Assembly (NCBI RefSeq): GCF_003334305.1
Contig: NZ_QOWS01000031.1
DNA length: 37,766 bases
DNA from: Escherichia coli
Lineage (GTDB): Bacteria; Pseudomonadota; Gammaproteobacteria; Enterobacterales; Enterobacteriaceae
Reading direction: 5' to 3' (one strand)
Positions within the stretch are counted from its first letter, which is position 1, and every line of letters starts with the position of its first letter. Below the pieces are notes generated by a model. The model was given only the letters and a program-made list of their open reading frames with translations, was not told where the DNA came from and did not search any database. Below, one piece after another: positions 20,007 through 23,000 of the stretch. Both the position numbers and the translations under genes were made by a program.

Positions 20007-23000
20007 TTACGCCTTCTCGATGTTGACTAAGAACGCTTTATATTCCGGCGTTTGCGAGTTTGCATCACCGACATTCGGCGTCAGAGTGTTAGCGATATAA
20101 CCTTTACGCGCGACACCCTCAAAGCCCCAGTGGATTGGAATACCCACCGTTTCAACCTGCTGACCATTTACATTCAGTGGTTTCAGACGACGCGTTACCA
20201 CAGCCACCGCGCGGATAAAGCCACGCTTGCTTGAGACAGTGACACGATCGCCATTATTAATGCCTTTCGCCGCCGCCAGCGTTTCGCTGATTTCCACAAA
20301 CTGTTCCGGCTGAGCAATTGCGTTGAGCAATGCGTGCTTGGTCCAGGTGTGGAAGTGCTCGGTCAGACGATAGGTCGTACCCACATACGGGAACTGCTCT
20401 TTTTTACCCATCCGCAGTGCGTCTTGTTCATACAGACGAACAACCGGGTTAGACACCACGTTCGGATGCAGCGGGTTAGTGCCCAGCGGCGTTTCAATCG
20501 GCTCGTAGTGTTCCGGGAACGGACCTTCCGCCATTTTGTTGATGGCAAACAGGCGTCCCATCCCTTCCGGCTGCATGATAAACGGCCCGGTTGGCGTACC
20601 CGGTGCGGCATTGCCGAAGTCAGGAATATCGTTACCCGTCCACTTGCTGCCGTTCCACTGGATCAGCATCCGTTTCGGATCCCACGGTTTACCGTTGATA
20701 TCCGCCGAAGCACGGTTGTACAGCACGCGACGGTTGAGCGGCCACGCCCAGGCCCATCCCAGCGTATTCCCCAGACCGGACGGGTCGGAGTTATCGCGGT
20801 TAGCCATCTGGTTGCCCTGCTCTGTCCAGCTACCGGTGTAGATCCAGCAAGAAGATGCGGTTGTACCGTCATCACGCAGATGCGCAAAGCTACTCAGCAA
20901 CTGACCTTTCTTCGCAATCAGCACGCCATTAGCATCATAGAGATCTTCCAGCGCATAGCCGTTGTTCTCTTTAGCTACTTCGTCAGATTGCGGTTCGTGC
21001 GGCTGCTTGTAGTTCCAGCTCATCTTCATCAGCGGTTCTACGCCTTTACCACCTTCGGCCTGGTACAGCTCGCGCAGGTGATGGTAGATACCCGCCAGAA
21101 TTTCACCGTCGTTACGCGCTTCGCCCGGCGCATCCTGACCTTTCCAGTGCCACTGCAGCCAGCGACCGGAGTTAGCAATAGAACCATCTTCTTCAGCAAA
21201 GCAGGTCGAAGGCAGACGGAATACTTCAGTCTGAATAGACGCCGGATCGACATCGTTCGACTCGCCGTGGTTCTGCCAGAAGGTAGAGGTTTCAGTCACC
21301 AGCGGATCGATAACCACCATGTACTTCAGCTTGCTCAGGCAGCTCACCACTTTGTTTTTGTCCGGGAAGGACGCAACCGGGTTAAAGCCCTGGCAGAAAT
21401 AACCGGTGACTTTGCCTTCGTCCATCATGTTGAAATACTTGATGACGTCGTAGGTCTGGTCCCACTTCGGCAGCCAGTCATAGCCCCAGTTGTTCTCTTT
21501 CTGCGCGGCATCGCCATAGAAAGATTTCATCAGGCTAACGAAGAACTTCGGATAGTTGCTCCAGTAGTTCACCTGATCAGCCAGCGTCGCTTTCGGCGTG
21601 TTCGCTTCCAGATACGACTGCAAATCAACCTGTTTTTCTGACGGCAGCGTCAGATAACCTGGCAAGCTGGTAGAGAGCAGACCTAAGTCAGTCAGGCCCT
21701 GAATGTTGGAGTGACCACGCAATGCGTTCACGCCGCCACCGGCCATACCCATGTTACCGAGCAGTAACTGGATCATCGCCATAGTACGGATGTTCTGCGC
21801 ACCCACGGTGTGCTGCGTCCAGCCCAGCGCGTACAGGAAGGTGGTTGTGCGATCCGGTGCGCTGGTGGAGGCCAGCACTTCACACACTTTCAGGAAGTCG
21901 GCTTTTGGCGTACCGCAGATGTTTTCAACGACGTCCGGCGTGTAGCGGGAAACGTGCTCTTTCAGCAGGTTCCACACACAGCGCGGATGAGTCAGTGTTT
22001 CATCGCGTTTCGCATAGCCGTTTTCATCGAACTGATAGTTCCAGGACGATTTGTCGTACTGGCGTTTTTCAGCGTCATAACCGCTGAACAGGCCATCTTC
22101 GAAAGCAAAATCATCACGCACCAGCAGGCTGGCGTTGGTGTAATGTTTAACGTATTCGGCGTTGATTTTGTTGTTTTCGATCAGGTAGCGCAAAACGCCA
22201 GACAGGAACGTAATGTCCGTACCGGAACGAATAGGTGCGTAAATATCCGCCACAGAAGCGGTACGCGTAAAACGAGGATCGACAACGATCAAGGTTGCAT
22301 CGTTGTTGTTTTTCGCTTCCATCGCCCAGCGGAAACCGACGGGATGCGCTTCAGCAGCGTTACCGCCCATTACCATTACGACGTTAGCGTTTTTGATATC
22401 CACCCAGTGGTTGGTCATCGCACCGCGACCAAATGTTGGAGCAAGACTTGCTACCGTTGGTCCGTGTCAGACGCGCGCCTGGTTGTCTACCGCCAGCATC
22501 CCGAGGGAGCGGGCAAATTTCTGTGTCAGCATCCCGGTTTCGTTGCTGGCACCGGAGGCACACAGCATACCGGTAGAAAGCCAACGGTTTACTGTTACGC
22601 CCTGCTCGTTCTTTTCAATAAAGTTAGCGTCACGGTCAGCTTTCATCAGCTTTGCAATACGGGAGAATGCTTCTTCCCAGCTAATGCGCTGCCATTTGTC
22701 AGAACCTGGCGCACGATATTCCGGGTAGCGCAGACGGTTTTCGCTGTTGACGTAATCCAGCAAACCGGCCCCTTTTGGGCACAGCGCACCACGGCTTACC
22801 GGATGATCCGGGTCACCTTCAATGTGATAAATCGCTTCTCTGGCGTTTTTCGCGCCATCACCCAGGCTATACATCAATAGCCCGCAACCTACGGAACAGT
22901 ATGTGCAGGTGTTACGGATCTCTTTAGCGCGTAATAATTTGTAGTTTCGCGCCTGAGCCAGTGCTTGCTTCGGGGCAAAGCCCAATGCCGCTACCGTTGT

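Follow-up and report, generated by a model that had tools for sequence, protein, structure and literature searches.

Selenocysteine decoding of UGA codon 196 in Escherichia coli fdnG and the SECIS element that follows it

In the 37,766-nt stretch of Escherichia coli DNA analysed here (positions 1..37766, called the window below), the ORF listing of the minus strand contains two neighbouring frames, 22467..23054 (195 aa) and 20007..22418 (803 aa). Do they represent two genes or a broken one, or a single gene whose internal TGA is decoded as selenocysteine (Sec)? An earlier sequence-only reading had chosen the last answer and named the gene fdnG. We reach the same answer with hardly any reservation: 23054..20007 (-) is E. 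coli fdnG, its codon 196 is a UGA decoded as selenocysteine, and a SECIS hairpin lies directly 3' of this codon (Table 1). Sec196 and the SECIS element of fdnG are already known in every respect, by work dating back to 1991, by an Rfam family and by a crystal structure. The original demonstration that selenocysteine is encoded by the fdnG opal codon came from Berg et al. (1991; J Biol Chem 266:22380), as cited in PMC13188914 (ref. 73).

Table 1. Features of the fdnG locus in the window. Nucleotides of the mRNA are numbered with U of UGA = 1.
Feature	Position	Strand	Details and basis
fdnG, formate dehydrogenase-N alpha subunit	20007..23054	(-)	1015 aa including Sec196; N-terminal twin-arginine signal SRRQFFK; single frame, RefSeq CDS, TIGR01553, 1KQF_A
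UGA codon 196, recoded as selenocysteine	22467..22469	(-)	translation; X (non-standard residue) aligned in 1KQF_A
Bacterial SECIS element, full SECIS_3 (RF01989) extent	22414..22472	(-)	84.3 bits; 59 nt identical to K-12 fdoG SECIS
Apical SECIS helix G15-C32, expected SelB-binding part	22438..22455	(-)	MFE and centroid folds; covariation
Bulged U17; loop G23 U24 C25	22453; 22447..22445	(-)	apical helix fold
Lower SECIS stem, ViennaRNA register G8-A13 with U38-C43	22427..22462	(-)	predicted fold
Palindrome GCAAGTCTTGC (mRNA sense)	22451..22441	(-)	nt 19-29; inside the apical helix
fdnH, formate dehydrogenase-N beta (Fe-S) subunit	19110..19994	(-)	RefSeq; TIGR01582, 482 bits
fdnI, formate dehydrogenase-N gamma (cytochrome b) subunit	18464..19117	(-)	RefSeq; NF007558, 486.9 bits

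The gene and its single internal TGA

Translation of 23054..20007 (-) in one frame gave 1016 codons with only one internal stop, the TGA at 22469..22467 (codon 196). Thus, the two ORFs are collinear and in frame across a single TGA, as had been proposed. The peptide around it is ...LAVDNQARV*HGPTVASLAPTFGRGAM..., or in a longer form ...GMLAVDNQARV*HGPTVASLAPTFGRGAMTNHW..., that is, VDNQARV-U-HGPTVASLAP, which the sequence-only reading had taken for the Sec site of formate dehydrogenase. Protein comparisons bear this out. The joined FdnG, with Sec entered as Cys, matched the NCBIfam equivalog TIGR01553 over residues 2-1014 with 1624.8 bits (cutoff, 814.2). It also aligned end to end (residues 1-1015, 2401 bits) with the near-identical chain A of PDB 1KQF, named "formate dehydrogenase, nitrate-inducible, major subunit", in which X stands at residue 196. 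The PDB matches ranked after it were chains named "selenocysteine-containing" formate dehydrogenase alpha subunits.

The whole window is identical (100%, ungapped) to a part of NZ_CP028767.1 from Escherichia coli strain A7, and the RefSeq annotation of this identical sequence also names the gene fdnG. With regard to K-12, fdnG (SECIS_3, RF01989; 1KQF) is the same gene, with UGA at codon 196, the 59-nt element and an fdnGHI operon with divergent yddG. The window's FdnG differs from the 1KQF sequence in a few substitutions such as L342F and S666A; these strain-level polymorphisms lie outside the recoding site and make no functional difference of note.

The surrounding genes are in line with this identity. 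The fdnG gene is followed by fdnH for the Fe-S subunit and then by fdnI for the cytochrome b subunit, the order of the formate dehydrogenase-N operon, and all three products scored above the cutoffs of their NCBIfam equivalog models. The paralogous fdoG, for the alpha subunit of formate dehydrogenase-O, was also considered as the identity of the gene and was ruled out by the divergent yddG, the lack of fdhE and fdhD, the length of 1015 aa and the score of the fdnI product, which was higher for the FdnI-type model NF007558 (486.9 bits) than for the FdoI model (268.4 bits). In contrast to the fdnG locus with its FdnH/FdnI-type partners, fdoG is located in fdoGHI-fdhE with a divergent fdhD and is expressed under other conditions. 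Over the window, the genes of A7 are gadC, digH, dosCP, ddpXABCDF, osmC, bdm, sra, maeA, adhP, yddM, fdnI, fdnH and fdnG, continued past fdnG by the divergent yddG, a yddL pseudogene, a gene for an LRR protein, narU, narZYWV and onward. A pattern scan of the whole window for FNR sites returned 31 matches against 20 expected, which is uninformative taken alone.

If the TGA were a genuine stop, fdnG would be a pseudogene or a pair of separately translated genes for 195 aa and 803 aa. This is how a mechanical ORF list presents it, and public protein collections contain each of the exact split products on at least 1000 contigs. On the other hand, every one of the 5426 complete E. coli genomes matched a 5.5-kb query around fdnG. 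All 5426 also hold the 86-nt recoding region, with at least 99% identity in 5368 records, that is, in nearly all. The solved structure of formate dehydrogenase-N has a continuous chain of 1015 residues with a non-standard residue at 196, and the curated SECIS model matches the site at 84 bits. Selenium-labelled FdnG of the full 113 kDa is reportedly on record already (Berg et al. 1991; 1KQF structure). Moreover, the 803-aa ORF would have to start at an internal Met (residue 213), losing the residues after the Sec site, and the NCBI annotation pipeline (PGAP) calls one intact CDS in A7. Given how nearly identical the UGA region is throughout the E. coli genomes, together with the crystal structure and the SECIS match, we exclude a true stop or a pseudogene, leaving such a reading a probability close to zero.

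The hairpin downstream of the UGA

The sequence-only reading had expected a bacterial SECIS downstream of the TGA and had pointed to a palindrome immediately 3' of it. The SECIS was found. Rfam SECIS_3 (RF01989) matched 22472..22414 (-) with 84.3 bits over the full length of the model (positions 1-59; E = 8.4e-19, calculated on the whole window), well above its gathering score of 63 bits, and no other Rfam family reached its own threshold in the window. SECIS_2 (RF01988), the fdhF-type family, reached 28.8 bits in the window, below its gathering score of 70. As for the palindrome, it is present within 22420-22470, but it begins only 15 nt downstream of the UGA and not immediately 3'. Taken literally, with five pairs closing a 1-nt loop, it would be sterically impossible; this form was replaced by the predicted one, in which the palindrome falls in the A18..U30 part of the helix and five pairs close around GUC, extended across the bulged U17.

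ViennaRNA predicts a single hairpin for the 43 nt from the UGA (-10.3 kcal/mol), with identical MFE and centroid structures. From base to tip, the predicted fold consists of a lower stem (G8-A13 with U38-C43), C14 left unpaired, the pairs of G15G16 with C31C32, the bulged U17, A18-A22 paired with U26-U30, and the loop G23 U24 C25. The Rfam model places the lower stem in a different register from that of ViennaRNA, pairing C4..A13 with U38..G46.

This fold can be compared with the bSECIS consensus of PMC13188914 (Fig. 2A), which consists of an in-frame UGA and a hairpin in the coding region directly downstream, with a spacing of 16-37 nt from UGA to loop, an apical loop of 3-9 nt whose first two positions include a G (G[G|U]), an upper stem of 4-16 bp and an MFE of -7.5 kcal/mol or lower. 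In fdnG, the loop begins at nt 23, at a spacing of 19 nt from the UGA, and it is either GUC (3 nt, G first) or AGUCU when the closing A-U pair is open. The upper stem has 7 bp interrupted by the bulged U17, and the MFE given above is also in the consensus range.

The fdnG hairpin is not thermodynamically exceptional. Measured against dinucleotide shuffles, the 21-nt apex reached z = -2.8 and the 43-nt hairpin -1.1; folds of 60 nt and 111 nt both stayed at -0.2. Since stability alone is not significant against shuffles, it is the covariance model and the comparative data that carry the case for the fdnG SECIS.

Comparison with the two known relatives in E. coli, which the earlier reading had suggested as a check, supports the assignment. 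The fdoG gene also has UGA at codon 196, and its peptide AVDNQARV-U-HGPTVASLAPTFGRGAMTN is identical to that of fdnG; the 59 nt of the K-12 fdoG SECIS from -3 to +56 are identical to the element in the window. The fdhF gene for formate dehydrogenase-H, which carries a SECIS_2 (RF01988) element, shares the ARV-U-HGP context. As in fdnG, the apical loop of the K-12 fdhF hairpin has the same spacing and contains G23 and U24, a U bulges out at position 17/18, and GG/CC pairs form the foot of the apical helix. The fdhF hairpin differs in a loop of 4 nt (GGUC) instead of 3 nt (GUC), a shorter apical stem and another sequence of the lower stem. The fdhF SECIS is the experimentally dissected prototype, in which the G/U of the loop and the bulged U are the features recognized by SelB. 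Reportedly, Huttenhofer and co-workers established in 1996, in the journal RNA, SelB binding and directed Sec insertion for the hairpins of both fdhF and fdnG of E. coli.

Comparative evidence for the helix

To get the comparative data, we scanned one genome per species (GTDB) for CARGCNMGNGTNTGACAYGGNCC, which encodes Q-A-R-V-UGA-H-G-P and leaves the apical hairpin unconstrained. At least 120 loci from other species matched. They span Enterobacterales, Pseudomonas, Burkholderiales, Rhizobiales, Rhodospirillales, Acidobacteriota, Actinomycetota, Desulfovibrionales and others. The occurrence of TGA in the same protein context at so many loci also speaks against a genuine stop, as prevalence only; the pattern itself demanded TGA, and therefore the loci show the spread of the Sec form and not the conservation of the codon. 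Four loci of Desulfovibrionales or Desulfobacterales type carry a different, shifted hairpin.

Among the matches listed, the 59-nt segments comprise 85 distinct sequences, which align without gaps. In these, 95.6% of the cells of the apical helix (columns 18-25 with 29-35) are paired, and four of the seven pairs show compensatory double changes. Pair 21-33, formed by the wobble bases of Val201 and Ala205, is GC in 55 segments, AU in 12, CG in 9 and GU in 4, and pair 24-30, formed by those of Ala202 and Leu204, is AU in 46, CG in 32 and GC in 2 (both among the matches listed). When columns were shuffled, none of 500 shuffles matched the observed covariation score or the percentage paired. When the 3' partners were slid by 1-3 columns, pairing fell from 88% to 27-50% in the Rfam register and to 25-64% in the ViennaRNA register. 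The nucleotides of the bulge and loop are almost constant in the distinct segments among the matches listed, namely U17 in 85/85, U24 in 85/85 and G23 in 81/85; such invariance is by itself no proof of an RNA role, as the codons concerned (Val201, Ser/Gly203) are constrained. It was also observed that, among the matches listed, Ala202Ser is never seen without Ala205Gly (VASLAP to VSSLGP); in 14 distinct sequences this double substitution converts the G22-C32 pair to U-G, so that a SECIS pair is kept.

The lower stem is less clear. Depending on the register, 79-83% of its cells are paired among the matches listed, and at most one pair has a compensatory change on both sides. Neither the Rfam register nor the ViennaRNA register is clearly favoured, and the best register varies by sequence. 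For function, no more than the upper stem-loop at a suitable distance is known to be needed, which would fit the weak support for the lower stem. As a separate observation, the lower stem appears to switch between two registers with the wobble bases of Gly198/Gly209 (A/U 16, U/A 7, C/C 38).

These data bear on a second alternative, namely that the hairpin is a by-product of the conserved peptide HGPTVASLAPTFGRG without any RNA function, and that the UGA is read through by another route, for example near-cognate suppression. Such an explanation would be compatible with the highly conserved active-site residues encoded by the stretch after the Sec codon, with a folding energy not significantly lower than shuffled sequences reach and with the little covariation in the lower stem. 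But the compensatory changes, with three Watson-Crick types for each of the pairs 21-33 and 24-30, fall at synonymous third positions, and therefore protein conservation cannot account for these two pairs. In addition, pairing falls sharply on sliding, and the loop and bulge have the same geometry as the experimentally studied fdhF element. On the ground of the synonymous sites we exclude the coding by-product, to which we assign only a negligible chance, and retain a SECIS element whose apical helix has been kept in evolution through compensatory changes.

From the aligned sequences, one may further speculate that the SECIS helix couples substitutions next to the active site, and that the register of the lower stem follows the wobble bases of Gly198 and Gly209. 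We hold this coupling to be possible, at somewhat less than even chances. If RNA pairing and not protein contacts were to drive such couplings, they would be a clean case of mRNA structure constraining protein evolution, though this adds nothing new on the E. coli fdnG locus itself.

Decoding of the UGA and annotation of the gene

Sec196 ligates molybdenum in the active site (Mo-bisMGD) of the respiratory formate dehydrogenase-N. Directly 3' of the UGA, the fdnG mRNA folds into the SECIS hairpin. Following the established bacterial system, its apical helix with the bulged U17 and the loop G23/U24 would be bound by the C-terminal domain of SelB, a specialised elongation factor that carries GTP and Sec-tRNA(Sec). 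With a ribosome at the UGA, the tethered complex would deliver Sec-tRNA(Sec) to the A site in competition with release factor 2 (RF2), and translation would run on to produce a single, Tat-exported FdnG of 1015 aa with Sec196 at the Mo-bisMGD site. For SelB binding, actual Sec insertion and competition with RF2 we thus draw on established knowledge, and the bacterial Sec-insertion pathway is summarised in section 4 of PMC13188914.

The machinery for this decoding, whose presence in the source genome the earlier reading had named as another check, is found throughout the species. K-12 sequences of the sel genes from RefSeq were matched against the complete E. coli genomes: selD and selA-selB were detected in 5426/5426, and the gene annotated as tRNA-Sec (selC) in 5425/5426. 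There is no sel gene within the window, and selD is annotated in A7.

Finally, the practical value of this locus lies in annotation. It had been predicted that automated annotation would miscall fdnG as a pseudogene or as two genes. This is right for simple gene callers, as the deposited split products demonstrate, but not for PGAP, whose CDS of 3048 nt in A7 has no pseudogene or join flag. The same general problem has been described (PMC13188914). Six-frame or Prodigal-type calling splits fdnG, and the split products are widespread in public collections, while a scan for a UGA with a SECIS signature recovers the true gene for 1015 aa. The names of the split products include "molybdopterin-dependent oxidoreductase", and one 195-aa entry is wrongly named "sulfate ABC transporter substrate-binding protein".

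Base pairing of the SECIS hairpin and coupled residues

The pairing of the SECIS hairpin 3' of the fdnG UGA (codon 196) was examined in alignment A1, which consists of 85 distinct ungapped 59-nt segments from other-species loci retrieved by the pattern QARV-UGA-HGP. In the apical helix, namely the upper part of the hairpin, G22-C32 is replaced by U-G in 14 distinct sequences of the 85 segments, and both sides of this replacement are non-synonymous. At the protein level, Ala202Ser is invariably paired with Ala205Gly in A1, turning VASLAP into VSSLGP. This coupling of Ala202 and Ala205 may reflect an RNA-structure constraint on residues adjoining the active site. 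In the lower stem, the Gly198 and Gly209 codons covary at their wobble bases (A/U in 16, U/A in 7 and C/C in 38 of the 85 distinct segments), and the register of this stem appears to differ between GGA/GGU and GGC/GGC sequences.

Four loci of Desulfovibrio, Mailhella or Desulfobacteraceae type lack the E. coli-type apical helix with the QARV-UGA-HGP context retained, and most of the unpaired cells in the A1 pair counts come from these four. By eye, another short hairpin, CUCU-GGC-AGAG, is seen about 4 nt further 3' in all of them.

Coordinates of the features discussed (window positions unless a locus or alignment is named)
Feature	Position	Strand	Remarks
yddM, HigA-family antitoxin	18129..18413	+	RefSeq annotation (A7)
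Lower-stem wobble columns	A1 columns 12 and 45 = 22461 and 22428		Gly198 and Gly209 codons
Apical pair G22-C32	A1 columns 22 and 32 = 22451 and 22441
TTGATTTCGCGCAA, candidate FNR-type site	23119..23132	-	two mismatches vs FNR consensus
TACCGCTATTGAGGTA, NarL-type heptamers	23180..23195	-	inverted 7-2-7
yddL fragment, truncated porin pseudogene	24426..24701	+	RefSeq annotation (A7)
Leucine-rich-repeat protein, 443 aa	ORF 24740..26071	+	RefSeq annotation (A7)
ISAs1-family transposase pseudogene	37455..37766	-	internal stop, partial; RefSeq annotation (A7)
QARV-UGA-HGP loci without E. coli-type apical helix	L030:4126-4184; L048:12007-12065; L051:3496-3554; L065:756-814

Sec machinery and split FdnG products

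Both selD and selAB are present in all 5426 complete E. coli genomes, and a tRNA-Sec match was absent from one of the 5426 by sequence search. A few fdnG, selD and tRNA-Sec matches fall on plasmid-labelled records. In the protein collection, the N-terminal 195-aa FdnG fragment (cluster of window:22470-23054:-; P0004, EFN8991448.1) has repeatedly been deposited as a separate protein, and one near-identical 195-aa entry is misannotated as 'sulfate ABC transporter substrate-binding protein'.

Upstream region and neighboring genes

Expression of fdnG is anaerobic and nitrate-induced. The putative FNR-type and NarL-type sites, both located in the fdnG-yddG intergenic region upstream of the fdnG ATG (23054), fit this control as sequence matches. 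The pattern count over the whole window is not significant taken alone.

The region between yddG and narU (24000-27000) is a low-GC island (GC 0.32-0.41; flanks about 0.53) that contains the yddL fragment and encodes the leucine-rich-repeat protein; it resembles a leftover of DNA gained by horizontal transfer. Within yddG, a 20-nt tandem duplication (23973..24011; 1.9 copies, 89% match) lies in the 3' portion. Elsewhere, yddM appears to be an orphan antitoxin or regulator, because the gap between it and adhP is only about 147 nt and no ORF for a HigB-like toxin adjoins it. The window ends within the ISAs1-family pseudogene, directly past which RHS element genes are found in strain A7.
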